Below are positions 16,660 to 59,701 of a stretch of DNA of 64,000 bases, one piece after another. The position numbers and the translations under genes were made by a program. Source of the stretch: Trichoplax sp. H2 (Eukaryota); NCBI GenBank assembly GCA_003344405.1, contig NOWV01000171.1, positions 53,558 through 117,557 of the forward strand, written 5' to 3'. Numbering within the stretch: the first letter of the stretch is position 1; each line of letters begins with the position of its first letter. Under the pieces are notes generated by a model. It did no database searches. It saw only the letters and a list, made by a program, of their open reading frames with translations, and was not told the DNA's origin.

Positions 16660-17350
16660 AAAACCACACGGGTTTAGTCTTTTCTCTAACATCAAGTCTA
16701 CTGGACAGTGCAGTACAGTACACAGTACAGTACAGTAAGTATTCTCGTTTTGGTATTCATCAGACAACCCACATGGGTTGTCTCTTTTCTCTAAAATCAA
16801 GTATACAGTGCAGTACAGTAAGTATTCTCGTTTTGGTATTCATTTGACAACCCATGTGACTCTAAATCAAGTATACAGTGCAATACAGTAAGTATTCTCG
16901 TTTTGGACAACCACATGAGTTTAGTCTCTTCTCTAAAATCAAGTATACAGTAAGACAGTAAGTACAGTATTCTCGTTTTGGTATTCAGTGGACAAAACAC
17001 CCGGGTTTACCCTTTTCTCTAAAATGAAGTACAGTATTACTGCAGTGCACAGTAAGTATTCAGGGTGTAGAAATTCGATCTAGATTAAAAAAAAACAGAT
17101 AAAATGATCAAAACTTTAAGCAGATATACAGTTTTATGGGTTTTATTCGAAAATAAATCATAAAAATATTCACTGACTTATCTAGAAAGAAATTCTACAC
17201 CTTGTAAGTATTCTGGTTTTGGGCAAAATACATACAGTATAGTACATGTACTGTACAGTGTACAGTACGTAGGTTTAGTCTTTTCTCTAAAATCAAGTAC
17301 TGTACACTGTACAGTACAGTATTCTGGTTTGGGTATTCAGTGAAGTACTG
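16660..17350. repeat. Satellite of about 85-bp units (6 copies). Each unit combines a near-palindromic box (AGACAACCCA-CA-TGGGTTGTCT), 'ctcttttctctaaaatcaagta', a (TGTAC)n microsatellite core and 'agtattctcgttttggtattca'. Copy 5 is interrupted by a MITE at 17061-17204.
   Basis: Direct alignment of successive units at about 16660, 16766, 16849, 16909, 16994 and 17213, with the last copy resuming after the insertion. Confidence 0.7.
17061..17204. mobile_element. 144-bp non-autonomous hAT-like MITE. Terminal inverted repeats are CAGGGTGTAGAAATTCGATCTAGAT ... ATCTAGAAAGAAATTCTACACCTTG. It is flanked by the 8-bp direct target-site duplication TAAGTATT (17053-17060 and 17205-17212) and is inserted into a satellite unit.
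   Basis: The TIR is about 22 bp with 3 mismatches and begins CAGGG, as in Ac-type hAT elements. An 8-bp TSD is the hAT hallmark. The interior is AT-rich with no ORF. The flanks reconstitute the uninterrupted satellite unit 'cagtaagtattctcgttttgg'. Confidence 0.6.
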
Positions 17351-17508
17351 TACAGTACAGTACAGTACGGAGAACTCTAGACATGTACTGTACAGTCCTG
17401 TACTGGACGGTTTACTGTACTACAAAGTGTACAGTACAGTACAGTACAGTAGGATCCTTTTCCAAACCGATAAATCGGCACCTACAGTACAGTACTGTAC
17501 ACTGTACA

Positions 17509-17797
17509 GTACTGTATTTTAGTTAAGCCGGCATTTTGTTCCCAAATCCGCTCCATTTTTATATTTAACTTCATATTAAAGAATTGGACACCAAAAAGAT
17601 CACGCTGTACTATATGTACAGCAAGTGCACATCTTGTCATCGGCTTGCGATAAATCAGTACTGTATTTTACTTAAGCCGGCATTTTGTTCCCAAATCCGC
17701 TCCATTTTTATATTTAACTTCATATTAAAGAATTGGACACCAAAAAGATCACGCTGTACTACATGTACAGCAAGTGCACATCTTGTCATCGGCTTGC
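17509..17797. repeat. Direct tandem duplication, two copies of about 150 bp that are roughly 97% identical (17509-17658 and 17659-17797), bounded on both sides by (TGTAC)n tracts.
   Basis: The string 'gtactgtatttta[gc]ttaagccggcattttgttcccaaatccgctccatttttatatttaacttcatattaaagaattggacaccaaaaagatcacgctgtacta[tc]atgtacagcaagtgcacatcttgtcatcggcttgc' occurs twice. Confidence 0.8.
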
Positions 17798-18188
17798 CTA
17801 CAGTACAGTACAGTACATGGCTTGTGATGCACTCAAGTTGGATGTGTTACTTTATATAACATAACAAACTAGTACTTTGCTGTGGGTCAATCAAATAGGC
17901 ACAGAAACTCACAATAAAGTATATAATATTACCTGTCAGATTAAAATAAAATTAATAGTACAGTATAATAAGATTAAATTGATGAGATGGGTCACGAGCG
18001 AAATATTTCAATCGATTGAAGAACTAGAATATCTTGCACTTCATTAGGTTAAGCACCTCAATATCGCGACGTATATTTAAGGGTAAATTCTAGCATTTAA
18101 TGAAATACAGTATGAAGATTATATACGTACACTACGGGAATGTAATCATGCTTCTTGTACTGTAATGATTAGTTCAATCACACTACCT

Positions 18189-18784: not shown

Positions 18785-22726
<3,942 letters not shown>

Positions 22727-23959: not shown

Positions 23960-24130
23960 GTACAAGTACTTTACAGTACAATGTACTGTGAAGGTATACA
24001 GTACCAACCCGTACTGTACTGTACCGTACTTTGTACTGTAAACGTTATTACAGGCCCACTATCAATCTATTGTACTGTACAGTCTACTGTACTGTACTGT
24101 ACAGTACAGTACTGTAATAGTACTGTAGTA
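23960..24130. repeat. (TGTAC)n palindromic pentanucleotide microsatellite tracts in the divergent PRMT3/TEP1 intergenic region. A (TAGCATT)n-like repeat lies at 23884-23925.
   Basis: Runs of 'gtactgtactgtaccgtactttgtactgta' and 'tgtactgtacagtctactgtactgtactgtacagtacagtactgta' are seen directly. Confidence 0.8.
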
Positions 24131-40324: not shown

Positions 40325-43300
40325 TTAAACATTCCTTTTTAGCCAGTCTTCTGCAACTCTTTCATAACTATTGATCCACGAAATTCTGTTCTTAATACTT
40401 TCAACAGACTGCTTAACAGCGTTAGCACCTGTGCCTACATCAGGATTCTGTCTGAAGAAATCTTCAACCTAGAGAAAGGCATACACAACTTATTAATATA
40501 CAGTATAGTCATCCATGCAATCTTCAGGGTTGTTAAAATACTAGATTCACTCTTGCTTCAATCTTAAACTTGCCTGCTTCAATCTAAATTGTGATGCAAA
40601 CCGTCCAGCAGTATTTCTGATTAAGCTACCAAAGGAAAAGAAACTGCCGCCATACCTTTAACAAAATGTACAAATTTTAGTCATAATTATAAACATTCCC
40701 TTGATTCGAATACTAGTAAACATCATATAATGTATAAGATTTTACGTTTTCCTAATATATGCCCAATTAGCACGAACGAAGTCCCATGCGAGAGGCCTGC
40801 CAACCAAGTTATTGGCAATGTAACCAATAACAACAGTAGAATCTTGGGAACGAACTTTAGCAGGATCAATGGACCACCTTAAGTACCTACAAACAGTTCA
40901 ATAATTTTTTGAATGTTTAGTGTACGAGAATTAAGTTAATTAATCATTGCAATTGGTAAATCCATCATCAGAAGTCACAATGTACCTATTCAGAATCCAC
41001 GGTTCCTTTGAATATGACAAAGCATCTAATATAGTTCGTTTTTCGGAAGCGACATTCGTTTTATAGAAGTAATTATACAGGAAATCCCACTCTGCGATAC
41101 CTCCATTAGCTATACCAAAACGGTATACAACCGCCTTCAAGTTCGGTTTTACGCTAATGTTGAATAGACGATTGATCTCACTATCCCCGCTTTGCAAAAA
41201 GTCACCTTGACTATGCAAGTATTCTGTATTTCCAGGTAAAATTAAATATCAACATTAACTTACGCATTATTTGTGGGGTCCGCCATAAAGCGACGGAAAA
41301 GCAAAGTTGCATTATCTAAACATGGCTTGTATCCAAATCCACAACCAATAGTTAAGGCCGACATGCGCAATAATCTGATTAAATTTGATGGCTTATATCA
41401 ATTATTGAAATTATGGTAATTTTATAATTTTAAGGTAGTAATTAGTATGTTCAGTTTTTTAAAGCTTACTATTAATACATAATTATAGTAAAAGTTAAAA
41501 ATACTCACTTCTGAGTATGACTCCCTTTGTCTTCAAAGCCAATCGTGTCCAATAAAGGCTTTAATTGCTTCAAGTAATATTGCTAAATAATAGGGTATAT
41601 AAATAAAAGCTCATAATAAGCTTATCACATTCATAATGTGAGATTATTTTATTATAGTTGTATAATTAAATATATGTGTCTAAGTATACATATCTGTCAT
41701 TTACACTAACCGAAAAGTAACCGTAGGATGAACGATATGATATGATGGATCCAATAGCGCCAAGTACAGAGTTTGCAGTCCTCCAAGGAACATAGCTTCT
41801 TTCTTTCGTAAGATACTTTGTTGTACCAAAAGCGATGTCGTAACTGAGCTGGCCAACTCTACAAAACGAGAAATTAGCGTAACAAGTTTATACAGGACAA
41901 AACCTTGAGAAGTACTTGGAGACTTCAAGGGTTCATTATAATTATCGATCAGTCCCTTATTACCTTGCAAGATTAAAAGCGTCATCAAGTAGATTGGAGA
42001 AATCTCTTTTTGATAATGCCTGTCACGCATACGGAAAGCAACGATCAGTATTTCATGAATATTTCAATACGTTATAAGCACATATGTCAAACACTATAAA
42101 ATCAATCAACATTTTTTAAATGCACGCCATCATTATTGGAAAAACTTACCGGTTGTGTTTTCTGCATTTCCTGGATGAGGAGATTCCAATTACTTACTGG
42201 ATAGTTAACTCGGTAATAGCCATAAGCATCTTTGTTGGCCTTCAGCCAAGTACCAGCTGGCCAAGCTATATTGAGAGCTATTTAGGAATTTAAAATTACA
42301 TAATTACCAAACTTGTTGTAAAGTACAAAATACTCAAACACAACATTGGATTTTAGATCGCTACAGTACTTGCAAAATACTTTTAATCTATCTAACTATT
42401 TATAATCCACATATGCATGAACGTAGCTTACTGGAACTCATGTTAACCATTGCACTTCGAATTGTGTTCGGCGAATTTCCAAGAATGTATTTAAGCGGGA
42501 TATTCCACTTGTATCTATTAATTTAAAGCAATTAGCCAAGTCTAGCTTTCTGATAAGCTTACGCGGATCAAATTTTATTCATCTTTAATAAATGTAATTA
42601 GAGATACTACTAATAATAAATAAATATTATCATACCCATAGGGTGACCTGAATTTTGAGGTTGCTGGGTCAACCTCGGGATTTTTATTATTGGGATCCAA
42701 CAAGAAACGTTTTTGTGAGAGTCGAGCTTGAGAACCTGTATTCGTGATAGTAACGACAGGAAATCCCATTTGCAGTGTCCAAGTATCCATAACATCAGTA
42801 ACATTTATCCTGTAAGAAATGGCCTTAAATGTTGCCATAATAATTCGATCAATGATGTGCTACGGGCAATTAACTACAGAACTTTATGATAGTGCTTGTA
42901 AATCATTAATATACATATCCGATTAAATTTTACCTCCGATAAAGTTTGCCAAAGATCTCGAGTTACAGCATTCCGATATTCGAATTTTTTTAAGTATCTC
43001 TACATTTAAGAAAAGTAAACGTACGATAAAGAGATAATCTAAAAACTTTTAAGCCATCAATGTGCAATCAGTTTTAGAATATATGTCATACCGAAATGCC
43101 ATTCTTGAAATCCAAATTACCCATCATATCTCTCATCATTCTAATGATCGATGCACCCTACATTATAATTGAAAGATTACTTACTAACTTCTATTACAGT
43201 ACCAACGTTTCAAAAAAATTAAAATATCCACAATTCAAAAATAGGTTTCAAAGAGAACAGACCTTCGCGTAAGAAATTGTGTCGAAAACTTCATTAATTT

Positions 43301-46300
43301 CGTCGGGATGATAAACAGTAACTTGGACAGGATGTGAAGTTACAAATGCATCCAAAGAGAAGGCGCGCTGTACGTCGATAGGTACAAATTGATCGAGCTA
43401 TTCAAACAAAGAGCACAACAATTGTAAATTTTTAGCAATATAAAACTATAGGGAAATCACGTATTATCTATCCACTGTGGTGATCATCATTCTCTAATTA
43501 TTGGGGAAATTTAAAATTATGTATTACCATTTCCCATGTAGGTTGATAATGATCAGTGCCGAGATATTCCATGAAACTAGCAAAGCCTTCGTTAAGCCAA
43601 AGATCATCCCACCACTTCATAGTGACTAAATTACCAAACCACTACATGTTCAAATAGAAATTGAATAACTTAGTTCACAACAAGAGAGTAACGTAGGAGC
43701 TCATATCAATAATTTTTATTAACCATATGAGCCAATTCATGAGCCACTACATAAGCAACACGTTGCTGATTGTTAGCTGCAGAGACATTTGGATCATATA
43801 ATAAAGCAGTTTCGCGATAGAGAATTAAACCCCAATTTTCCATGGCCCCAGCAGCAAAGTCAGGAACTGCTACCATGTCTATTAGTTATTAAGGTGGCGA
43901 TAGGTATCAAGCGATTAGCAAAGCAAGAATAATGAAATGTATCAAACAACAAACTAATTACCGCATTATCAAGCATTACCTTGTTTCGGCAATGGGAAAG
44001 GAATACCGAAAAAATCTTCGAAGTAATCAGTTATATTAACACCACCAATTAAAGCGAAATTGCCCTGATTGATAGTATCGGTAGTTGCCCAAACCCTTAT
44101 CTAGATCCAATTTTAGTAAAATTTAGCTCCGCTGAGAAATTTTTAATTAATTTTAAATTGTATAAACAGGCAACATGAAACATAATGCTGTTTACTATTT
44201 ATGTTAACATACCGGTACTCTGTTTTTGGTCATCATTTCGATGTAAGTAAAATCGGCTAACACAAATGCAAGTAAGTACGAACTCATCCTAACACTGGCT
44301 GTAATAAATTGAAATATCGATCGTTAAGTACAGTTTCTATTTTAACAATAATAAAACAACGTATGCAAAGACTGAAATTTAATTACCAGGCTACATCAAT
44401 GGTCAATGTATCAAGGTGACAATACAACCTGCAAAGTCTTTCTTTGTACTGTACTACGCTAGATATGAAGTATCGTTCACTAAACTTACTGTTGTAGTCA
44501 TATCTTCTAAAACCAGGGCGATTAGGTATTGTAACATTTCTTTGAATTGGCATATTCCATAGAACGCTCGTATAATTTGATTGAGTAATGATTGTTGCTG
44601 TAAAATTGGCCTTCAATTCAGGCTCATCAAAGAGAGGTATAATCTTACGTGCGTCAGTTGGTTGACATTGGCTAGCTGCGATATTTCTAAATTGGAAAAA
44701 ATAACATTGCATAAAATTTTAGAAATGCAACAAATTTACTTCACAATTGTTAGGATTTACAGCAACACATTGACGTAACGATTGCTTCCCCCTCAATTTT
44801 TTTTTTTAATTCCGTCATTTCGATACTCGATTAACAAATTTAAAGTAACCTATCGTGCCGTTCGCATTGGCAACCCTACCCATCAAATACGACATAAGTA
44901 ATTTCTCCTACTTTAAAATAAACTCCATATCTAAAAATGAAGAGCCGCTTGTGCTACAATAATGATCACAACATTTGTTTTGGCACATGGCACTACGACT
45001 GGTGTTGACAACGCTAAACCGTAGTACAGTACAGTATAGTGAATTATTTACAGTACTTTGCGCGATTGTAATTTCGAAACTGGCCAATCAAATTCAGCTT
45101 CCAATTTACGTCACAGAGAGGCTGATTTGATAGATTGTTGTTCCGTCGAGGACACGTTTCATGTGGTCATGTAACCAGCATTCAGTGCGCACTTTTTAGA
45201 GCTCCAGTAGTAGGGTAAAAGGATTACAGCACGGTAGGAAAAGGATTACAGGCACTGTACGTACAGTACAATCATGGACTACTACAGTACAGTACTATAT
45301 GTACAAAAAACACTGTAGACTGTAGTCCATGGTACTGTACTGTGCCAGAGACTTCTCCGATAGGGCAATACGGTACAGTGGAAAACTCTCTTTAAAATGA
45401 GAGTCTGCTGAATCAGCCGCCAGAGTCAATTAGCCATTTAATTAATAATGACTTGGAACCATCACTGAACGGACGGCAAAATCAAAATAATACAGTACTG
45501 TAAAATCTCCAATCTATTTATCTACTGTACAGCAGCTAAAGGTGTGGCCCAAAGTAACGCACATTGGGGGACGCTAGAAATTTTTCCTTTTACCTTGATG
45601 GCTTGATGCCCGTTGATGGAAAGGAAGACTAAAACTTTTGATTTACCGCACCGTATTTGCACGGTATAGTAGTATATGGTTTACGTATCTAAACATAGCA
45701 GAGCCCAGTATTGCTCTGAGACATGATACGTCTGTGTCCAGTCTGTGACTGATTTAGTTGGACACTTACAGCACAGCATGTTGAACGTCATTGTCGAAAG
45801 CGAATATGCGTAAGTAAATAATTACCTTGTCGCATAAGCACACAACGTTGTTGTAATTAGGTGAACAGTTTCTGTACAATGCTTACGATGTGCAATTTAC
45901 TTTTACTTACATTACACGGCCATCCAATTTTGTGTAAGTACTTTTATACAAGCCGTTCAACGCAGTAGATAATGCTGCCCTAAAATTAAATCGGACGTAA
46001 TAGATTCCAGGATTAAGCGGGCTAGCCAGCACAATGTAGTAATAATCATTTAGCGCAAAAGCATTATGTTCGGATATCGTTAACGGGTTGCCAAAATTAC
46101 GTGTAGACGAAACCACTGGGGAACCTACTAATGTCATTTGCTTCATATGAACAATAATGATATTCGTTTGTGAAGTAACGGAGATTTCGATATCATTTTG
46201 GCCAGTAAACTGCAAGCCAATCATATCTACATCCAAAGAAAACCAGTACTGAATTGGAACAATATTTTTGGGAAGCCGAATGTTATTGACCGCCGGATAT

Positions 46301-46593
46301 CTCGATGTCGGTTTAGGTGCGGTAGGTTTGACTGTAGCAACAGTTCGAGTTGTGGTAGAACCTGAACTTTGAGTCATGCCAGGTCTTGTGGTCATCGATG
46401 GCCGCGTTGTAGCCATAGTTGCCTGGGTACCGCCAGATCCTTGTGCACTTCCTCTAGGAACAACACCAGCCATAATGCCAACCAATACGATCAAACCGAT
46501 AGCAACAGCAACTGCAATGATTAGATGACACTTGCTACAGTAGTAACCATTTGGTTTCTTTTCTCGCACTTCAAAATCCGTTCCTTTTTCCAT
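40325..46593 (-). CDS. Aminopeptidase N-like M1 zinc metallopeptidase (APN-A), a type II membrane protein. Exon 1 is 45911-46593 and encodes the cytoplasmic tail, the TM segment ([21 protein letters not shown]), a Ser/Thr-rich stalk and the start of the N-domain. Exon 2 begins at about 44706 (..[29 protein letters not shown]). The catalytic exon near 43560-43860 carries [53 protein letters not shown]. The 42575-42838 region carries [20 protein letters not shown]. The 40940-41218 region carries [13 protein letters not shown]...EPWILNRY. The stop is at 40325-40327 (...[17 protein letters not shown]).
   Basis: The intact GAMEN exopeptidase motif and the HEXXH-(18)-E zinc-binding motif are present. 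There is strong colinearity with vertebrate ANPEP (QPTDAR..FPCFDEP; [12 protein letters not shown]; EEWDFAWEQF...LWILNRYL). Canonical splice sites are used; exon 1 ends ..GRV-AT|gtaagt. Confidence 0.85.
45030..45345. repeat. (TGTAC)n tracts plus an inverted repeat (catggactactacagtac...gtagactgtagtccatgg) inside intron 1 of APN-A.
   Basis: Seen directly at 45030-45060 and 45255-45345. Confidence 0.75.
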
Positions 46594-47194
46594 CTTGTTT
46601 ATTTAATGTGTTATAGTAAATAGAACTTCCTACAACTGCAATCGTCACAAACTGTCGAAACACAGAAGCAGAAATAACTGCGAGGAGTACGAACTGTGAG
46701 TTGGCAGGAGAAAAAATAAAAAATAAAAAAAAAACAATCAAGACAGGCTAACTCAGTTCCGTTAACTGATCAGAAAAACGCTCTCCTGCCAATGATGATT
46801 AAGGGACAGGAGTAGCCAATAAAATAGCATGACCAGCCAACTATCGTGTTACCCAGCACGATACAGTTACCGTGCAGTATTGGTCCATCTGATACTAGCC
46901 AGTGGTTACTGACATGTGACATAGCACACTGTCTAGTGTACACTGCTGTGCGCGGTTGGCTACTATGGTATAGTCACACAGTACAGTATAATTGGTCGCC
47001 GTCCTTTGATTAAACGATTAATAATAAAAAAATTAATTAGCACTGCCCGTTTAACAAACATCAAATTATCATAATAATAGAGCTTTATTTGATCTGACTC
47101 ACTTAATAAAAGCTGATGGCAGAACCAGCCAGAACTATGGTATACTTTCTGCCAAGTTTCTATTAACGTTGATGTTGGGCGGAGCCTAATGGCG

Positions 47195-50100
47195 TACAGT
47201 ACAGTGCACTGTACGGCACTGTTAAAAGTACTGTACAGTACAGTATTTACAGTATTAGCGTTTCAAACATTTCGATGTACAGTACAGTACAGTACAGTAC
47301 AGTACTGTACACTGTACCGTACGTACTGTAGTTACCGTACTGTACATACTGTAGAGATCAAGATAAGGTAAATACACGACAGTAAAACGGTATCATGATG
47401 ACCGTACCACGAAATTGTTACTGACTATCAGTAAGTTTTTGCTCCCTATTTATGTACTGTACAAGGAAAGGAATTGACCACAAAATTTATAAATTAACTC
47501 ATCTTATTTTATTATTTTATGTAAGACCACTTGTAACCAGTATCATGGCTTTATTGTATGTTCACAGCTTAAATCCCTTCCAAGCTTTCTTTTCTTTCTA
47601 CTCAAGTAGTGTCACGTATCGCATGATTGACTGGTTTTGGCTAGTTATTATGCACGTGTTAATAAAACCGATAGGCAGAACAACCGAACAAAAGCGCTCG
47701 ATTTTTCTTTCAATTTTTTATTTATTTATCATCGTCTGCTATATTCGTGCTGTATTTAAATATCAGTTTTATAATGTACTTTATAACTACTGTATATTTA
47801 ATTACAATACAGCTGTTATATTAACTATCAATACAATAAATAGGAAATGTTATAGCAGTCAATAAAGTTTCATAGTTGCAGATAAAAAAAGAGCTGAATA
47901 TATTCACGGTGCTGTTGCATTTCCGCTTTACAATATATTCAAATTGACACAATGTGAGTTTTACATTATTGTAGGCCTATCTGAAATTAAAGTTTTCCAA
48001 GCAGCTCCTATTTTAACCACGATACAATTCGAAGAGGCACATTTGTCAAAACCGTCCATAATGCTCACCTGGAAAAGAGGATCCAGAATACCATAAACAG
48101 ACATTGATCTAGGCGAACTTTCGCTGAAACTCACATTGTAAAACAATACTAATAAATAGATATCTATAGAATAGATAAGTAAATCGATAGTTGGAATAAC
48201 GAAGAATAGGATGCCAAACGTTAGCATTTACTGCTGCATGCCCTCAAGGAGTTTTAGTAATTCTATTCATACTCTGTGCCATCATAGCGCTATAATTGAA
48301 AATCATTTTGCAAATATTGTATGCCAGTTCACCCCTTATTTACTGAGAAAATCGATAAACTGACGACACTGGGTCTAGTCCCTTATCCATCACCACAGGG
48401 CATTAGTTGTCTAATTTTCAATACTCGTGCATATAATTTGACTTATTAAAGATCTTCTCAAGCTTATCCCAATTTACAGTAATGTATGACAGTATTCAGA
48501 GTTATACAGTACAGAGTATCATATTCCCTAAACGGTTAATTAAACGGACTTTAACATAGCATAACTAATTCGTACACTATGCTGTACAGTGTACAGTATA
48601 TATTATCTACTGTATAGTACTATACTGTACTGTACTGTACATCAATCATCAGTCCTCTTTGGGAATAGCCTTTACGAGGAGTTTTCTCAGTGGGGTTCAA
48701 GAGTTAGCATTATTATTATTGCATTTGGTGTAACAGCTGTTGTTTTTACAGTCCATCACATCAACGTCATTAACCCTCTTCAGATCAAAACTACATGTTT
48801 TTACTGTATTGCATGATCATTAATTATGTGACAAGTTTGAACCACATCATCTACTTCTTTAGTCTGGCATCTGTAGATCCATAGGCTCAGCGAAGTGGTA
48901 GACAAGAGTTAGGAGATAGTTGTACAGCCTTTGTTGAAAGCGCGTAAGGCTTATGTAACTCCACAACAATCGTACAGTCAGGTATGCGATACGCGGTTAT
49001 AATACAGACGCGCGATACAGGTTTATACCAAATAATCCAATGGTAACAACATTAAGCCATGCATACATTACTGTACAGGGATGTGCAATTGTGCATAGTA
49101 TGATCTACAGCATCCATAAGATCTCTTTATCCGCAACGCTGCGTGATTGATTGTTTTCCAGATTCATGTCTGTGTCATGTACATTAGTACAGTACAGTGG
49201 AATGACCAGAAAAATGATAAGCCTCCATGCTTTTTTGCACTGAAAAGTGGTACTGCTGTACTCGTCTTGTACACTGCACAGAGATCGCGAAAGTGCCTCA
49301 CTTCTGAGTAACCGATATCGGACGAGTTAGCGCTCTAGGTTTTTTTCGTTTATCTGTATGGCTTACATCATCAAGTTACGGCAAAGGTGACGTCCACTGT
49401 ACTGTACTCTAACTGTACATATATATAGGTTAGATTTGTATGATATACAGAAACAACATACAAGCCTGAGCTGATATGCATTTTTCATGGTATTTTTCAG
49501 ATACATTCACTCACTTTTCTACTACATGGTATCAGTTCCGCTAATACTGCTGCAGTACTGACAAAAGTTAAATTAAAAGTAAATTAAAATAATAATAATC
49601 GCATATTTGAATAAAGAAGAATAATAAAGATATCAGTTTTGAGGCTAATACTTGATTCGAATCTCTGATAGTGATACTGTACTTTCGATCAATCAATGAT
49701 TTCTTATTGTTAATTGCGATACTGATAGAGTACAGTACTGTACAATCAGGGACTATTAAACGAACGAGATGGGGCAGGAAACGGTTGTTCGGTATGTTCG
49801 CTATACTAATAAATCAATAATGTGGAGGCTGATTATTCAATTGGTCATTTCAATTGTATCGCATATCTGTAAACGGTACACTATACTGTATGCGATTGGC
49901 GTCAAAAATTAGCTGCTATTATCCTACTACCTTGCTGTAAGTTGGTTTTATGCAGTATGGTATACAGTTTCAATGTTTCATCGGTAGCATATAGTACAAC
50001 GACCGAAAAAATGATAAGCCCTCCAAATTAGTTTACTTTACGCTATGGTCGTTTCCTGTTCCGTTTCTTTCTTTTTCTTTCTTTAGTCATTCGGACTACT

Positions 50101-50245
50101 ACAGTAGATATACTGTACAGTACTGTACTATGCAGTGTACTGTACAGTACTGTACAGCATACAGTGTACCGTACGATTGTCATCATTGAGTAACCACGGT
50201 ATATCGACTTCTATTGTACAGTGTACACTGTACAGTACATTATTT
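47195..50245. repeat. Divergent intergenic region between APN-A and APN-B containing at least six separate (TGTAC)n microsatellite blocks (47195-47350, 48490-48650, about 49190-49215, 49395-49415, 49725-49750, 50095-50245).
   Basis: Seen directly, for example 'gtacagtacagtacagtacagtactgtacactgtaccgtacgtactgtag' and 'gtacagtactgtactatgcagtgtactgtacagtactgtacagcatacagtgtaccgtacg'. Confidence 0.8.
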
Positions 50246-51562
50246 TGACGCTTAACCAATCAAAATCTATCTTTTGAGAAAACGCATCACGTGCAAAATC
50301 CAAACAAATTATATTATTTAATGTCATATTATTATATATTACCTATATATATTATATTGTCATATGTCACGATATATATGTCACCGTGACATATACTGTA
50401 TATTATACAGCGAGTATAACAGCACGATAATTAAGGGTTAAGAAGGCGTAATCATATAAATATTGTATACCTTTCGCTAAATACAGTACTGTACTGGCAC
50501 ATAGGATTGGCTACTAGGCCCAGTCATTCCTCTGTGATGTATCCAAAAATGCTGCTAAAATGGCGTTATATCTTCGTTATACTTGTCCGAGCAAATTTAC
50601 CATATTTTAACGATATTAACGAAGATCTAAAACGATGTTCGGCGCAGAATATCTCTAGCTAAATATGTCAGGTGCACGCCCGTGCACTCCGAAAATCTTG
50701 GTTAATGACTTTGTTAACACTTAAATTAACTAATCAATTATTCACAGAATCGCAGCCTAAAAAAATCTGGTTGAACTATCGACGATAAGTTCTTGTAACT
50801 CTACTACTGCTTCTATTGTTATATTGTCAAGCGGTGGTTAGTTTCTTATCATAAAATATTGCCCAACATTGTCAGTAAAAGAAAAAACAAATTAGTTTTA
50901 AATTAAATTTATATTGATAATAACAATGTACCCAGATAAATAGGCCTGACCAATGACAGTATTATCAAAACAATGGTTACTATTGTTGCTTCCGTCTATT
51001 CGAACTTTCCAATTCTAATTGCCTTCGGGCAAATATGGTTAAATGAATTCGACGGCAGAATACATTGATAGACTGACAATGATACAATGCTGGACTTTGC
51101 AATGAGTATATGGCGTCCGAAAATAAAGGATACAATCAATGCAAACTCAAATAAGCTTAACATTGAAAAGCTACTTCTTTGTTCATTTAATATACTGTAC
51201 TGTATATATAATGGCGTTCATCAACGACGACGGCTTTGCTCTTATTATATATTATTTATCCAGCAATAATTACAATACTTTTGATCGTCCCCTACTTCAA
51301 GAAGATTAGCCACCTGAATATTACTTCAATATCACAACATTTGCATCCTTCTTCCTTTCTATCTATTTGATAGGGTTAACGATTCAGGAAATTATGTTGT
51401 AACTGTTGCTATCCAGTCTAATAATAATATACGCTGGTAAAGTGGAAAGCAAATCCTATACAATATATTAGGACAATCTTGGACATTTTTTTCCATCCGT
51501 GGATGGGAAACTAATGATATTGATTCTTCCAGAAATAGTCATCGCAGAACGAAAGACTGAAG

Positions 51563-54500
51563 ATGATTGAGAAAGATCGACAACAATCAGAGAAAACTGA
51601 CATTAGCAAGGAGGACAAAATTATTATTATCAAGCGGTTGCCTTGCAGCAATACTCGATGGCTTTTAGCGATAACAATCGTAGTCCTTTTAATTGCTATA
51701 ATTGGCTTGGTTGTCGGACTAATACCGAGGTCCAGTTCTCAATCTCAAGTTGGTACACAAATTGTTACAACAGTTTCAAGTATTAAATCCACCATACAAA
51801 CACAATCATCACCGTCTAAAATTACGTTTCCTACAACATTACCAATTAACACCAGAAAACCTACCGATGACTACAATACAATTCCATCTACTCCCGACCG
51901 TGTTAGCACTCATGCTCCCATTACAAATCCAATTCCAACTTCCAAGTATCCTGCTATGAACAATTCCCGTTTACCGAAACAAATTATACCTGTTCAGTAT
52001 TGGTTTCAACTCGAGATTAACGTTAAAAATTTAAACTTTTCCGGTTATAACATTATCGAATTAAACGTTACATCACCCACGAAATTAATAATTGTTCATG
52101 CTAAGCAGCTAACAATGACTGCAGTTCCTCAAGTATCTAATACTCGTGTTGCGACGGCTAATACAATCTATTATCCCGTCAAAGAACACGGCTACTACTT
52201 TCCCAATCAATATTATTATGTGGCATTGAAAGATTCTCTGAATGTTGGCATTTACTATATTAAATATCAATTTCAAGCACCTTTAAGTCGTGATTTTCGG
52301 GGATTATACGCGTATCATTACACAAGACAATCTGATCAACGTAAAATGTAAGTATGCCTACTAAGTTTTTTCCTAGCTAAGTTATGAACCGTACTAGCAG
52401 TATTTAATATCCCCACTAATCAGAAATTTTAGACTTTTATGAATTTTGTAATCAAGCGCCACAATTGTTTTAAAATATTTGTACTAAAATATTCACTAAA
52501 CATCTAAAATTTCAACCACCCAACCGCTTATACTTTAGTTTTGTGTTGCTATGCGTTAGAATCAGTCGAAAAAAATCTGAAATCTAATAGGTCAATTGAT
52601 ACAGTTATGAAAACCGTATCTGACATTGGGTATCATAAGGGTATGAAAGATTAGCCTTGAATGCATACGCGCATTTAATATGTATTTAATATGCATATAT
52701 TCTGTAAACAATGTCTTAACTACAATTCAGATTGAAATCCTTAATCAAATAAACAATAGATTGCCTCATTAACTTTTGTTAATCTGATAATTTAACGCCT
52801 AAATCGGTCATATCATTAATGATTTTACGTAATTTAATGGCTTAATGGAGGCCTTCTGCAATAGATTCTGATAAAATAATAAAACTGAATATACGTACGT
52901 ATACCCGTAAATACATTTAGCTTCTCAACTTTGTTATAACTTACTTTTTTTCATTTCTACTTTCCATAAATCATTTTTGTAATACGTTCTATTTCTGTGC
53001 GATTTTTAGTCTTCCTATTGATATTTATGTCCTCTGCCAATGTCAAACACCTTCCAATTAAGCTATTATGACCTTAATAATATGTATGCCTTCACTAATG
53101 ATGTTTATTCTAGATGGGCAGTAGCAAGTCAATCTCAACCTAATTATGCCCGAAGAATAATTCCTTGCTTTGATGAACCATCCTTTCCGGCTGTCTTCGT
53201 TGTGAGTGTAATCGTATCGATGGACTATAGTGCAATATCAAATACTGAAATCCTAGATATACAGCCTTACAGCGTGAACAAGATTCGCATTAGATTTGAT
53301 CGTAAGTCAATCGGCGTAAAGTTGTTAAAATTAACAATGTAACAATAATAATTATTACACTCAAATAGCGCCATCAATCATGATAATATCCCCTTATTAT
53401 ATAGGGATTAAAGCTTCAGTAATTTTTTTCTCGAAAATGTTTAATCATAAGCGATGAAGATTATTCTAACATAATTACCTTACAATATAAATCACAGTTG
53501 GATACCTTTATCACATATTCATCTTAGAATAAAAGCCAATTATAGTTTATCTATTCAATCTTGGCTACCATTAACCTTGACCTTCCAATTTTGTATATGT
53601 TGTTTTGGACGAAGCTGTACTGAACAATATTAATGAATTATTTATTACATCAGCTACTCATCGTATGCCAAGTTACTTTCTAAGTATCATTGTTCATAAT
53701 TTCCGCCGGATTCAACAAAAAACCAGGGCCGGATCCTCGGTATGTTACAATAAATTTTAGTTTTAATTATTATGAAATAACTATGAAACTTATTATCATT
53801 ATAATTATCATTCAAACCCTGTCCTCAGATTCGTATTTGGGCTAGAAGAGCAATCTACCAAGACGGGCAAAATGCTTTGACTGCAGCCGTAAATATAACG
53901 AATTATTTCGAAAAAATACTAGCTATTAACTCTCCCTCAAATAAACAAGGTAAGAAAATAATACTGATTTTAAGAATTATTACTTTAGATAAATTGAAAT
54001 AATTGGTTCTCAGGATTGTGCTGATAGAACTATGGATATGCAGATGTATTATGAATAGCTTGCGCTTTTACTTTTGAGTAACGCGTACACTTGTAAAAAT
54101 AAATCAAACTGACGATACGTTGAACATTTCATTAGATCATGTGGCACTTCCTACATTTACTGCAGATACCACCGCAAATTGGGGAGTCCTAATTTATCGG
54201 GAGGATTTTTTACTTGATAACAATTCCTACTCTTCGTCAAAACAGCAGCAACGAATTGCAGTTACTGTTGCCTATCAAATTGCGCAAATGGTAATATATA
54301 TTACACCGAAAATAATTGTTTCAAATTGTGAAATTGACATTCGGCAATCTATTTTCATATTAGTTTCAGTTTCTTTGTTTGACATTTACAGATTATTTAC
54401 AATATTCCTCTTAATTAATAAAAAAAATATTATGAGTGTAGCCACCTTACCAGACTAAAGAGTTTTAACGATGTTAAACTATATTTACAGTGGTTTGGAA

Positions 54501-57500
54501 GCTTACTAACAATTCGTAAATGGAACGATTTATGGCTTCCAGAATCACTCAGTTGCTTCTTCGAAATAGTTGGAGCAGCATATTACCAGCCTACATTCCA
54601 ACTAGTAAGTATAGAAATCATAACCTACAATGTATGCTGTATTTCATAATTCTCACATAACATTACTTCAAAGCCATATCATGGAATCGATTATACTCAA
54701 AGAATATGTTTATTGTAACCTATGGTTTATCAAATGACGGTTTACAATAGCAGAAATACCGAATTAAAGTGTTAAACTTTATTTACAATATTTTGGTGGG
54801 ATCTATCCCTTCGTATATCACAGCATATAATAAATTTGTTACTATAAATTATCTGATGATGTTGCTTTGGGATCTAATTATGCTTAATCTTGCAGATGGG
54901 TCAATTCATTGTCGATCATGTTCAGTTAGCTCAGAGAACAGAAGGAGTGCTTAATTCTTACCCCTTAGTATCGGCAACGGAGCATTCCCTGACGTTTTCG
55001 GATCCTATTTATTGCCATAAGGTATCATATTTTTTAAGCAATTAAAATAAAGTTATTTCAGAACATAAACAAATTTAATTAATTTAATTTAAATAGTTTG
55101 AACAATATCGTAAAAGTTTTGATTTAATATATCATGAAGAATGATACTATAATTTTTAGATTTACGTATAACTCTGCATTTTTTATTATTAGCTGTCTAC
55201 TTATGTTAATCGTAATCCATGTTTGTTATTAGGGAGCTGCACTATTTCGTATGTTGCAAAATTACATAGGCGATACCAATTACCTACTTGGAATTACGGT
55301 TGTTACATTATTCTATAGATCAAGTTTGATATAATCTCTTTAATTTTACAAGTTATCATGAGCCAAATTATGCGATCTTCTAGATCAACCATTCTAGTAA
55401 AGATTTGACAACTCATGTGACGTAAAGTAAATTATGGTATGACTTTCTTATAGGATTACTTGAAGTATCACGCATATCGATTCGCGAATGCTGCTTCCTT
55501 ATTTAATGCATTGACTAAGGTGAGTAAATATATTGGTACGAGACATGAACGCTTGCGTATAGTCTCGATAACCGTTGTTGCGAACGCTTTACTATTAAAG
55601 TATATTAGATATAGAAGCCAATATAGGCTGTTCGGAGCTATTTATGACTCTCCTGAATTTAAGATTTCAGCTTATCGATGCAATATAACTGTCGCTCATA
55701 TTGAGATTAAGAATTACATAAAGATCTAGATTACTATACATTACAGTACCGTATTTCACACACTTTAGCTAGAAAACGATTAGTTAAGATAATGATGTGC
55801 ATGTAAGTAGTACGGTAATATATACGAATTCCAGCATAGGCAAAACAGCTCAGTGACAAATAATCGTGCTGTATTAATAGCACCAGTATGATGTTGCTAT
55901 AATTTCATTATGTGTGGTTAAGTAACTAAACTGTCATTCCTGATTGAATAATGTTAAGGGTAAGGCTTATCTTAATACATCTATGTCCAATTCCCTTAGG
56001 CAACTAAGCACCAAAAAAATGTAGCTAATTTCATGCACCCCTGGATAACTCAAAGAGGCTATCCCATAGTTATAGTCCAGCGAGATCCACAAAATATTGA
56101 CGGCGCCGTTTTAACTCAGCTTCCATTTACTTCGCCAGTTTGGTCTAAAAACAGGTATTTTCAAATTTAATCAGATTATCCGTTTTCTGTAATCATGTTA
56201 TATAATTGAATATAATTGAATACAAACATAACCAAATTTTAATACTTTAAATTAAGGCAAAGCTAAAGTCTACATTTAAAGATAACTATTTCATTCATAC
56301 TACATTCTTTCAATTGCTCACATTAAAGTATTTTAATAATGCATTTTAGTGATGGATGGCACATTCCCTTCACTTGGTATTATGGAAGCTCTCCCAATAA
56401 TATCTATCAAAAAGTAATTAACAGGACCTCAGGTATCATGATCTAATTATTATATCAATCTACTTTTAATTAAATATATACTGGCAATGTCCTATAGTCC
56501 AAGTACATCTATTTATAATATAGACTTTTATTATAGCTACTAAATAAAAATAAAATTTTAGTAGTATCACATACAAGCATGGCTATTACCTAAAACCTTG
56601 GTACAATTATAGCTTTTATAACACATTATCTGATTTTATTCCAGCAACTACTAAGATTTCTTGGCCCAGAAATACATGGATTAAAGCAAATTTTAATCAG
56701 TATGGATACTATCGCGTAAATTATCCGCTATCAAATTGGCACGCTATTTCATCTGCTCTTCAGTCTAATCCTCATGTAAGATAAAAAATCGAAGTTACAT
56801 AACAAGTTACGATCTTGTTAAAATTTTATCGATCTATTTACGAAGTTAACTCTGATTTTTATAACAGCAAATGACGAAATTAGATATCTCCAGTTTAATG
56901 GATGATGCTTTTGAGCTTGCCAGGTAAGATAATCTATTATTTCGCTAACCAAGAAGTTTAGTGAGTGCTATTAATTACTTCTCTAGAAAATACTTACTGG
57001 ACTGTTTAAATAGTCACATAGTATATTGTAAAGTATGGTCAGTAAATTAAACCAATATCAATTTTCCTAATTTTGATCAGATATAATTATTTCACTAAGA
57101 GAATAGCTAAGTTACAAATTATCACGTTATTTTTATTGGTAGATAAGATACGACTTGACTGATACTGATAAATGAGGTGTAAGAAAGTACAACATAACGT
57201 TTCAGAATTAAAAATTAAACCATCTTTAATTATTTTTAGTTTGCGAAATTTAAGCTACTCAATTCCGCTTAATATGACCAAATATTTAAAACAAGAAACT
57301 ACTTATTTGCCTTGGAAAACAGCCAATGTACATATGATGAATATCATGCAAGCATTTCTACTTCGACCATCGTACAATGCGTTTAAGGTAATTCTTCAAT
57401 TAAAACGTGTTTCATATGCTAGTATCCTATTTAATATTTACGCCATTGGTATAGTTTAAAGTGTCATAACTAGTGCTTTCTCATTAAGTCTTTAGCTGAG

Positions 57501-59701
57501 TTTTAAATGATCATCAAGACTTGATAGCTATCGTATACTATTGCACGTCTAAGAATCATTTATCATTGAATGTACATTTTCTTTTTATTCTAGAACTATT
57601 ATACGAAAATTTTAACACCCGTGATCACCGTGGTTGGTTATCAAGATACAGGACATCATAACCATAAGTAACTAGCTCGCTTAATTATTTAATATCTTGA
57701 TTTTATTTTTAACTAACAATGACTCAGTTGGTCTTAACTGATAATAGTAATAGAAATATTTTTGCTATAATAATGACATTTATGAATTCGGATGATAGAT
57801 TACTCCGATCTCTCGTCGTTAATTCAGCCTGTTTACTTGGCAATCAATCCTGCATTAATTATGCTTTAACAATGTTCAGAAATTATATGAATAATCCTGC
57901 AAACACAGCGTAAGAGTTAATTTCTACGAGATACAACCTTTGTAGTAATGATTAAATTATTGCGCAATAGATATTTATTTAGTGTATAGAGTTATTTCAT
58001 GCCTCAAATAATCTTCTCTAGAATTCCAGCAAATCTGCGATCGGTGGTATTCCGTTATGGTATTCGATATGGTGGAGATGCAGAATGGAATTTTCTCTAT
58101 AACCATTTCAAACATGCTTCAAATCTGAATGATAAAATTAGAATGATGCGTGCGCTATCATTTTCAACCCAGAAAGCTAATCTTCAAAGGTAAGAAGCGA
58201 TTCTCCCCTATTGTTACTATATCAGCAACTGTTGTGATAAAATAAAACACCTGAAGATGTAAAGTACAGTAGAGAGACTTTATAGTTTTTGCATAGCTAC
58301 TGTATATATTATTATCAATAAGTAATGTACAAACAAGAACTAGGGTGCTTTTCTGATATGTACATTTGTGACTTTTTACGAGATTCTGAGGGTAACGTTG
58401 AGACTAACATTTTTTTCCTAAATACTGCAATATTAAGATAAGACTGAATCTCAGAAGTATAGTGTATGGTTAAATTACTGTAAGCTAATATTGCCGTGTG
58501 GATTATATCCAGTCTCTAAATTTACATTAATTAATTTTGGAGGGCTTTATACACTAATCATATAATTAAAAATTACAAAAGCTTCAATTTATTTAATTAA
58601 CACCCAATTAATATAAAATAGACGTTGTAAAATTGTTTATACACAGATGACGTAAATATATCAACTATATTTACGGTATTTAAATAAATACTATTGCAAT
58701 ACCTTATTTCATGAATGGCTACCTTTTAGTTAACATGTACGGTAGTATTCAAAAATACAGAAAGTTTGACAGAGCAAACAAAATTGTACTAAACTGTAAA
58801 GTAACACACTCGGAAAAAATTTACATTAATGTAATTAAAGGCGATTACAGTATGTCGAAGATATGACATAAGCTGAAGACGAGCGAAAATATTTTTACGC
58901 TAGCATTCAGTTCATTATATTACGGACGTAAATAGGCCTGTATGTAAAGAAATTTAAATTCATATATGGAGTAAATCAGTTTAGCTGTAAGAAATTTAGG
59001 CTATTCGATATTATCGCTTAGCCATTTATCTATTATTAATAATATAATTTGATATGCGACAGTAATGCGTATATATTCGCACATTATTTTTATCTTAGGT
59101 ACCTGAACGATTCTATCGCAGATACACTGAATCCATCATACACACTAACAATACTTGACTGGGTAGCTCAGCAAGATATTGGAAGGAGCATAGCTTGGAA
59201 TTTCGTACGGGCTAATAAAAAATATTTTATGAACAGGTTAAACGGGAAAACAGTTCTCATATGATAATCTTTACGTTGGAGGATATGCAGTAATTTTCGG
59301 TTATCGTTCTCATTAATAGTAATTGCTAAATGACAATCTTTTTAGATTTGGTACCGTAAGGGTCCCAACAGCGTCTATTTCTAAGCACTTTAATACTCAA
59401 TTTTTATTCAATCAGGTCGGTAATAAATGCTTTAGAAATGGAAAGCGAATCTTTTAATTTCATCACAACATATCGATTTCTAATTGTAGTAGTACCATGT
59501 AGTCAAGTTGATGTAGTATTGATCTTGCACTCTTTCATATTGAAGGTACAACAATTTATGACAGCTAACCCCGACAAAAAGGTTAATGAATTTCCACTTC
59601 CTAAGAAACAAACGATTCTTTTTAAGGTGCAAAAGAATATTGACTGGCTTCAGCACCACGAGACAACTTTGCAAAAGTGGTTCAATGATAACCTCAAATA
59701 G
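51563..59701 (+). CDS. Aminopeptidase N-like paralogue (APN-B) with degenerate catalytic motifs, a predicted pseudo-enzyme. Exon 1 is 51563-52347 (cytoplasmic tail, TM segment LLAITIVVLLIAIIGLVVGLI, Ser/Thr-rich stalk, ...SKYPAMNNSRLPKQIIPVQYWFQLEI...). Exon 2 is near 53085-53290 (..SQSQPNYARRIIPCFDEPSFPAVF). The catalytic-region exons lie at 54120-54300 and 54480-54600 (ALPTFTADTTANWGVLIYRE ... VAYQIAQMWFGSLLTIRKWNDLWLPESLSCFFEIVGAAYYQPTFQL). Further exons lie near 55460-55510, 55985-56150 (MHPWITQRGYPIVIV), 56640-56780, 57720-57910, 58000-58190 (GGDAEWNFLYNHF) and 59050-59260. The terminal exon ends ...TLQKWFNDNLK* at 59701.
   Basis: The same domain order and the same exon-1 boundary as APN-A (both end ...-AT|gtaagt after a Lys/Arg-Met), so this is a paralogue. 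At the two catalytic signatures APN-B reads DTTAN for GAMEN and YQIAQ for HELAH (both zinc-ligand His and the catalytic Glu are lost), and WLPESLS for WLNEGFA. Confidence 0.8.

Follow-up and report, generated by a model that had tools for sequence, protein, structure and literature searches.

Sequence analysis of a divergent M1 aminopeptidase gene pair in Trichoplax sp. H2 points to a three-gene cluster with a conserved pseudoenzyme

Introduction

What does it signify when a pair of M1 aminopeptidase genes diverges from almost 5 kb of repeat-bearing DNA and one of the two seems to have lost its active site? This arrangement occurs in Trichoplax sp. H2, within a stretch of 64,000 nucleotides (contig NOWV01000171.1, positions 53,558 to 117,557 of the forward strand, GenBank assembly GCA_003344405.1) that we refer to in its entirety as the window. 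A sequence-only reading of the window had seen in the two genes an inverted duplication that placed an active enzyme and a dead paralogue on either side of a satellite-rich region, and had put the locus forward as bidirectional or co-regulated. Our analysis makes a different account quite probable, namely that the two genes belong to a cluster of three encoding type II M1 proteins, that gene A is active, that gene B is an ancient pseudoenzyme kept by selection, and that the spacer between them is ordinary and carries separate promoters. The main elements of the locus are as follows.

40325..46593, minus strand: gene A, M1 aminopeptidase (TRIADDRAFT_20166; H2 protein RDD38550; 20 exons, ~981 amino acids)
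46594..51562, no strand: A-B spacer (4,969 bp from ATG to ATG)
51563..59701, plus strand: gene B, predicted dead M1 paralogue (TRIADDRAFT_52305; H2 protein RDD38553; 20 exons, 998 amino acids)
about 64150 onward, beyond the window end, plus strand: gene C, active-type M1 (L001:10001-19445)

Results

The divergent pair is part of a three-gene cluster

The window is AT-rich (31-37% GC), with short GT-AG introns. Splice sites in genes A and B were placed by demanding exact translation to the H2 models, and the last three exons of gene A, where the H2 model skips one exon and the H1 model takes another splice, were rebuilt. In a protein search the stitched minus-strand exons matched TRIADDRAFT_20166 (P0001) and the plus-strand exons TRIADDRAFT_52305 (P0121), with further matches to P0140 and P0138; gene A exons are 99-100% identical to P0001 and P0140. 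The amino-acid variants of both window genes agree with the Trichoplax sp. H2 proteins, RDD38550 for gene A and RDD38553 for gene B. The two start codons on which the sequence-only reading had founded its divergent pair, at 46593 (minus) and 51563 (plus), are both borne out.

The last intron of gene A (40574-40468) is best explained as GC-AG, with a GCAAGT donor at 40573 that yields the junction ...RLKQ/VEDFF... in phase 0, which is also the phase of this intron in B and C.

The pair is paralogous and divergent, as had been claimed, but it is incomplete. A third M1 paralogue that had gone unmentioned, gene C (TRIADDRAFT_63531, 991 amino acids), has both GAMEN and HELAH and begins 4.45 kb downstream of B in the orientation of B. 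The cluster comprises three genes, A (minus), B (plus) and C (plus), whose UniProt accessions in T. adhaerens H1 run consecutively (B3RHX4, B3RHX5, B3RHX6).

Gene A retains the M1 active site and gene B has lost it

Both genes encode members of peptidase family M1, with three domains each above the Pfam gathering scores. Peptidase_M1_N (PF17900), Peptidase_M1 (PF01433) and ERAP1_C (PF11838) score 113.9, 285.7 and 299.4 bits in gene A and 112, 137.8 and 230.7 bits in gene B, where the respective gathering cut-offs are 25.8, 27.7 and 38.2. The catalytic domain of B (138 bits) therefore reaches about half the score of that of A (286 bits). Gene B nevertheless aligns end to end with human APA (glutamyl aminopeptidase) 4KX7 (E=1.5e-123), and APN structures align as well. 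Alignment to 4KX7 was used to assign the motifs of both genes, which are located as follows.

45911..46593, minus strand: exon 1 of gene A (amino acids 1-227 plus 2 nt; donor GTAAGT, phase 2)
43727..43849, minus strand: gene A motifs in exon 5 (GAMEN 43849-43835; HELAH 43741-43727)
43599-43579, minus strand: third zinc ligand of gene A, in WLNEGFA
43277..43155, minus strand: catalytic Tyr of gene A, in ISYAKG, split by an intron
51563..52347, plus strand: exon 1 of gene B (amino acids 1-261 plus 2 nt; donor GTAAGT, phase 2)
54165..54287, plus strand: degenerate active site of gene B in exon 5 (DTTAN 54165-54179 for GAMEN; YQIAQ 54273-54287 for HExxH)
54533-54553, plus strand: distal Glu of gene B, kept in WLPES
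55007..55235, plus strand: Cys of gene B in place of the catalytic Tyr, in IYCHKG

Gene A has every element of the M1 catalytic signature (GxMEN, HExxH-x18-E and the catalytic Tyr), with GAMEN at amino acids 373-377, HELAH at 409-413, the distal Glu in WLNEG and the Tyr in ISYAKG, and looks like a conventional, active zinc aminopeptidase. Of the same signature, gene B preserves the distal Glu as sole survivor; DTTAN, YQIAQ and a Cys stand at the remaining positions, and its product is predicted to be catalytically dead. On this point, the pairing of an active enzyme with a dead paralogue, the sequence-only reading was right.

The two proteins seem to share a layout. In the translation of gene A, a hydrophobic stretch of 22 residues (amino acids 24-45, nt 46524-46459) is followed by a segment rich in Ser, Thr and Pro, and the order of cytosolic tail, hydrophobic anchor, Thr/Ser/Pro-rich stalk and three M1 domains predicts type II membrane anchoring. 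The translation of gene B likewise has a 22-residue hydrophobic stretch (amino acids 33-54, nt 51659-51724) and then an S/T/P-rich segment, so that the type II architecture of anchor, stalk and ectodomain would be common to both.

Gene B appears to be a maintained pseudoenzyme

The loss of catalytic residues in gene B is not accompanied by decay of the gene. All 20 exons are open in the window, and all 19 introns have canonical splice sites. We identified an orthologue in a divergent placozoan (Logan contig L003, SRR30664517), of which 14 exons could be reconstructed; its 13 introns are all GT-AG and have the phases of window gene B, and its frame of 773 amino acids is free of stop codons, with 70.9% identity to the protein encoded in the window. 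A Nei-Gojobori comparison of the two gave pN 0.18, pS 0.64 and a dN/dS of ~0.14, with values of 0.10 for the part that encodes the catalytic domain and 0.30 for tail and stalk. Gene B is the faster-evolving of the pair, with an exon 1 that is 58-65% identical to that of its orthologue, compared with 72% for gene A.

The motifs of the orthologue read DATSN, HQIAQ and IYCHKG. Because this gene too lacks the GAMEN Glu, the catalytic Glu, the second zinc-binding His and the catalytic Tyr, these four residues were presumably lost in a common ancestor, before the placozoan lineages diverged. The first His would have disappeared afterwards, in the Trichoplax lineage, and the gene would then have been retained under purifying selection. 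An intact frame and purifying selection in spite of the lost catalytic residues argue that gene B is a maintained pseudoenzyme and not a pseudogene.

If selection has kept gene B, a non-catalytic role at the cell surface is the most likely one, and the protein may act in binding, as a scaffold or as a partner of its active paralogues. A more elaborate proposal is that gene B encodes a placozoan-wide surface M1 pseudopeptidase with a non-catalytic task, for example as a receptor or sensor that binds the N-termini of peptides, or as a modulating partner of A or C, and that co-regulation in the digestive epithelium has preserved the divergent layout with gene A across a spacer with an unusual wealth of opposed (ACAGT)n tracts. 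We regard this proposal as rather improbable.

Genes A and B probably represent the oldest split in a placozoan family

First exons that are homologous and end at the same codon position had been taken as the mark of an inverted duplication. The observation itself holds: the first exons of the two genes are 47% identical over 147 amino acids (tblastn, E=3e-33), and in each of them the intron interrupts an Ile codon in phase 2, at matching positions of the alignment. Genes A, B and C, however, have identical intron phases throughout, at all 19 positions (2,1,0,1,0,0,0,0,0,2,1,0,2,0,2,2,2,2,0). The identical intron maps show that A and B are paralogous through DNA-level duplication, and since every phase is common to the three genes, the exon-1 boundary is not diagnostic of a duplication between A and B.

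Relationships within the family also place the two genes apart. Genes A and B are 36-38% identical, whereas A shares 67% identity with D (TRIADDRAFT_35766), which lies on a different scaffold. A neighbour-joining tree that set the five Trichoplax paralogues among cnidarian, bilaterian, sponge and bacterial sequences recovered the five as monophyletic (100% bootstrap) and divided them into (A,D), with a support of 100, and (B,(C,E)), likewise 100; A is thus closest to D, and B to C and E. Because B, C and E are all fast-evolving, rare changes were counted in addition. At sites conserved in the outgroups, B, C and E have eight derived residues in common and A and B alone have none; B, C and E also share two insertions.

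Genes A, B and D each have an orthologue of their own in the divergent placozoan (Logan and ENA assemblies), which suggests that the A/B split is the oldest in the family and predates the divergence of placozoan lineages. The contigs that carry these orthologues (1.15 kb for A, L006; 6.45 kb for B, L003; 4.7 kb for D) are too short to link neighbours. No M1 gene occurs in the 3.2 kb upstream on the D-orthologue contig, and L003 ends in an 84-amino-acid open reading frame (ORF) without resemblance to M1. The family, which is specific to placozoans and counts at least five paralogues, probably arose by DNA-level duplication with its 20-exon structure kept. The A/B junction would then mark its oldest split, between an A/D and a B/C/E lineage, produced either by inverted tandem duplication or by a direct duplication that was later inverted. 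It is possible that the family goes back to an ancient inverted duplication.

The spacer is ordinary Trichoplax intergenic DNA

The sequence-only reading had described the spacer as packed with (TGTAC)n tracts and palindromes. This repeat is the same as (ACAGT)n, and the tracts, together with two conserved non-coding blocks, lie at the following positions.

46595..46751, minus strand: conserved block beside the ATG of gene A (~70% over 100-160 bp against L006, E=4e-8)
47194..47347, no strand: biggest spacer cluster, (ACAGT)n/(ACTGT)n, including (GTACA)7 at 47277-47311; opposed tracts and imperfect palindromes
47460..48806, no strand: filled gap of the H1 assembly, flanked by ACAGT tracts, with no recognisable feature inside
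48583..48640, no strand: (ACTGT)n tract
49186-49198 and 49396-49418: two opposed short tracts that pair as a perfect inverted repeat of 16 nt, the arms separated by 191 nt
50100..50240, no strand: mixed ACAGT/ACTGT tracts with overlapping palindromes
50909..51361, plus strand: conserved block ahead of gene B, 200-650 bp from its ATG (~60%, colinear over 470 bp, against L003, E=1e-11)

The tracts and palindromes are present and indeed enriched, with loose ACAGT coverage (one mismatch allowed per 10-mer) of 8.0% in the spacer and 1.8% in the remaining window. All notable inverted repeats of the spacer consist of ACAGT tracts opposing ACTGT tracts, and the palindromes would be a by-product of adjoining tracts in opposite orientation. 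"Satellite-rich" is a poor description of such DNA. Satellite arrays run head to tail over hundreds of base pairs to kilobases, whereas the spacer holds short microsatellites: five perfect tracts of at least 13 bp that add up to 86 bp, the longest being 29 bp, and a longest TRF array, a pentanucleotide one, of 66 bp. The published tract criterion is a perfect repeat of more than 12 bp, and the spacer tracts have the character of the promoter-associated microsatellite of Trichoplax, that is, ACAGT/ACTGT tracts of this length no more than 5 kb upstream of genes.

As the dominant microsatellite of Trichoplax, ACAGT makes up 78% of the pentanucleotide repeats; upstream of genes, 54% of its copies are at most 1 kb and 85% at most 5 kb away (Wang et al. 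2010, Biol Direct 5:18, PMC2871265). The tracts of this locus are themselves in the published table, where those for models 20166 and 52305 are given at scaffold_1 8872667-8874495; Additional file 5 records the (GTACA)7 tract of the biggest spacer cluster 913 bp upstream of model 20166 and assigns to model 52305 two tracts that map to gene A intron 1 (PMC2871265). Within the window, clusters as dense as those of the spacer or denser occur at 16.7-17.8 kb, at 24.0-24.1 kb and in gene A intron 1. Since (ACAGT)n is a genome-wide microsatellite that gathers upstream of genes, this promoter-bearing 5 kb of intergenic DNA is ordinary by the standards of Trichoplax, and the opposition that had been drawn between its repeats and ordinary promoter sequence does not hold.

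The gene A orthologue of the divergent placozoan has an ACAGT tract in intron 1 (L006:1131-1142), so the microsatellite is not confined to the H1/H2 lineage. No ACAGT tract was found in the 6.4 kb of contig L003, which include 899 bp upstream of the B orthologue.

Searches of the spacer for other elements gave no Pfam domain in eight ORFs, no tRNA and no Rfam family above threshold, and self-BLAST detected neither a dispersed repeat other than the (ACAGT)n tracts nor inverted non-coding homology beyond the microsatellites. MicroRNA-like Rfam hits on the palindromic tracts, obtained at a permissive E-value, were rejected as hairpins of opposed repeats (19-29 bits against gathering scores of 38-110), and a scan for sigma-70 promoters and terminators, a model inapplicable to a eukaryote, did not rise above shuffled sequence.

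The two genes most likely have separate promoters

A bidirectional promoter is usually defined by divergent transcription start sites less than about 1 kb apart. With start codons and conserved blocks as proxies, the pair falls well outside this range, the ATGs being 4,969 bp and the blocks ~4.2 kb apart, which makes the bidirectional promoter suggested by the sequence-only reading unlikely. We infer that the block at 46595..46751 comprises the 5' untranslated region and core promoter of gene A, and that the block at 50909..51361, which contains a CCAAT-like element and a GGCGTC-GAAAATAAAG element, is the promoter region of gene B. Two proximal conserved blocks at this distance favour separate unidirectional promoters over a shared one, and each gene would most likely be served by its own promoter near its ATG.

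YY1-core-like AATGGCG sites are present in the spacer at 47188, 50559 and 51210, one of them inside the block conserved upstream of gene B. Across the window the YY1-like motif has 6 copies, 3 of which are these, against 4.1 expected; the comparison was post hoc and not significant, and the candidate was set aside. Literature and expression searches by the gene identifiers of the pair returned no matches.

Alternative explanations for the locus

Three other accounts of the locus deserve consideration. The head-to-head genes, with homologous first exons of equal intron phase, might be direct products of a fairly recent inverted duplication after which B decayed into a pseudogene, as its missing catalytic motifs and an excess of nonsynonymous over synonymous differences between the window and H1 would also suggest. 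Genes so formed would be expected to be mutual closest relatives with inverted homology in the non-coding DNA around them, and A and B are neither: A is 36% identical to B but 67% identical to D, A and B have separate orthologues in the divergent placozoan, and no non-coding inverted homology flanks the genes. Decay of B, for its part, is at odds with 20 open exons and 19 canonical introns, and with an orthologue of 14 intact exons and a dN/dS of ~0.14. We consider this origin extremely improbable. Hardly more credible is the presence in the spacer of an unrecognised gene or mobile element, for instance within the 1.35 kb missing from H1, which would mean that A and B are not true neighbours. 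It could be accommodated by the N-gap that H1 has at 47460-48806, by a 137-amino-acid ORF at 47452-47865 and by a further entry, RDD38551, that the H2 protein series places between A and C. This ORF, however, is AT-rich with a low-complexity-like composition, the ORFs gave no Pfam hit, no tRNA or Rfam family at threshold was found, no repeat copies occur elsewhere in the window, and the consecutive H1 UniProt accessions (B3RHX4, B3RHX5, B3RHX6) belong to A, B and C.

Shared control of the two genes is the most serious of the three and still, in our judgement, unlikely. Under this explanation the 5 kb spacer would be a common regulatory region whose ACAGT/ACTGT clusters, as factor-binding arrays or cruciforms, drive or insulate both genes, with the dead paralogue co-expressed alongside the active enzyme. 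Divergent paralogues are frequently co-expressed, the tracts occur in both orientations and can form palindromes, and ACAGT-type sequence is ~4.5-fold enriched in the spacer relative to the remaining window. Wang et al. (2010, PMC2871265) have in addition raised a possible role in transcription-factor binding for ACAGT, given that its copies gather upstream of genes. Against these points, the motif is genome-wide and not specific to the locus, in the divergent placozoan no ACAGT tract precedes the B orthologue within 899 bp, the conserved non-coding blocks adjoin the ATGs and not the tracts, and the ATG spacing far exceeds the usual limit of <1 kb for bidirectional promoters.

Our preferred reading, of a three-gene cluster with an active A, an ancient maintained pseudoenzyme B and an ordinary spacer with separate promoters, has to be set against several considerations that count against it. 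Synonymous divergence in the gene B comparison is near saturation, which makes the dN/dS estimate rough. Between the window and H1, gene B differs by 7 nonsynonymous and 4 synonymous changes and gene A by 1 and 2, respectively, and the 7:4 ratio in B is compatible with relaxed constraint in recent time. The tree that groups B with C and E is a neighbour-joining tree only, long-branch attraction could raise its support for this group, and the counts of rare changes are small. Separate promoters and absent co-regulation were read from conservation and distance only, and the conservation comparison covers the two flanks of the spacer, over 171 bp in front of A and 899 bp in front of B in the divergent placozoan. 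Finally, the ACAGT density of the spacer is ~4.5 times that of the remaining window, and the B-C spacer in H1 is free of tracts, which leaves room for a locus-specific role of the tracts between A and B.

Comparison with the T. adhaerens H1 assembly

By megablast, the window is 99.1-99.5% identical across most of the compared DNA to T. adhaerens H1 scaffold DS985241.1 (8.86-8.91 Mb), with a lowest value of 97.8% in the block 41911-45419. Two 50-N gaps of this 2008 scaffold are filled by the window, at 45420-45715 (296 bp) and at 47460-48806 (1,347 bp). Both filled gaps abut (ACAGT)n tracts, which suggests that the microsatellite broke the Sanger assembly of H1 at these positions.

At the boundary of intron 13 and exon 14 of gene A, the window contains a 70-bp segment (41841-41910) that is missing in H1 without an N-gap. 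Its absence takes out the exon-14 acceptor and the codons for RVGQLSY, and for this reason the JGI model TRIADDRAFT_20166 reads ...ASLQVLDIAF... there. The missing segment reflects either a true deletion in H1 or an assembly error.

Neighbouring genes and repeats

A large plus-strand gene (~24.7-39.7 kb; L002:16689-25791) is tail-to-tail with gene A, ~0.9 kb from its 3' end. The predicted product of 2,435 amino acids has Pfam hits to TROVE, APAF1_C and many WD40 repeats and resembles telomerase protein component 1. A (TGTAC) array of ~11 copies (24071-24127) lies a few hundred base pairs upstream of the probable first exon of this gene. Farther away, an ORF fragment on the minus strand (19578-19940) gave the sole hit when the long ORFs of the first 40 kb were searched against Pfam, a weak match to PRMT_C, the oligomerisation subdomain of arginine methyltransferases (E=1.8e-5, under the gathering score), and is probably an exon of a PRMT-like gene.

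The densest ACAGT cluster of the window, at 16705-17817, contains six perfect tracts and is assigned in the published table to model 20168. Beside it lie two copies of a 149-bp unit that are 98% identical (17507-17797), and 2.8 copies of a 70-bp unit (16763-16964).

Discussion

Much of this locus is already known and largely ordinary, both genes having been annotated and the repeat published. Genes A and B resemble the metazoan membrane M1 aminopeptidases (APN/CD13, APA/ENPEP; MEROPS M1) in their predicted anchor and stalk and in their Peptidase_M1_N, Peptidase_M1 and ERAP1_C domains. They differ from them in that the five Trichoplax genes form a clade of their own and are not one-to-one orthologues of APN, APA or ERAP, and in that gene B lacks catalytic and zinc-binding residues. 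With the bidirectional promoters of head-to-head gene pairs the locus has divergent orientation and paralogy in common, but the ATG spacing of 4,969 bp and the separate conserved blocks set it apart. In motif, in the shortness of its tracts and in its position upstream of genes, the repeat shows no essential difference from the (ACAGT)n that Wang et al. (2010) described in T. adhaerens.

Gene B finds its closest counterparts among M1 proteins that are not peptidases, one of which is TAF2. Another is yeast Tma108, an intracellular M1 pseudopeptidase (PMC11266112). As in these two, the M1 fold of gene B has been retained, the catalytic machinery lost and the protein apparently kept by selection, and its role may similarly be one of binding. 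Tma108 and TAF2 act inside the cell, associated with the ribosome or in the nucleus, whereas gene B keeps the predicted anchor and stalk of an ectoenzyme and is clustered with active paralogues.

For annotation, the consequence is that the labels "Glutamyl aminopeptidase" and "Aminopeptidase" on gene B should not imply activity, and for the study of Trichoplax gene regulation the locus could be used as a small test case for any regulatory role of (ACAGT)n. The new point is a modest one: a putatively membrane-anchored M1 aminopeptidase appears to have lost its catalytic site early in placozoan history and yet to have been conserved. Gene B would thus add a case of the ectoenzyme type to the short list of M1 pseudopeptidases.

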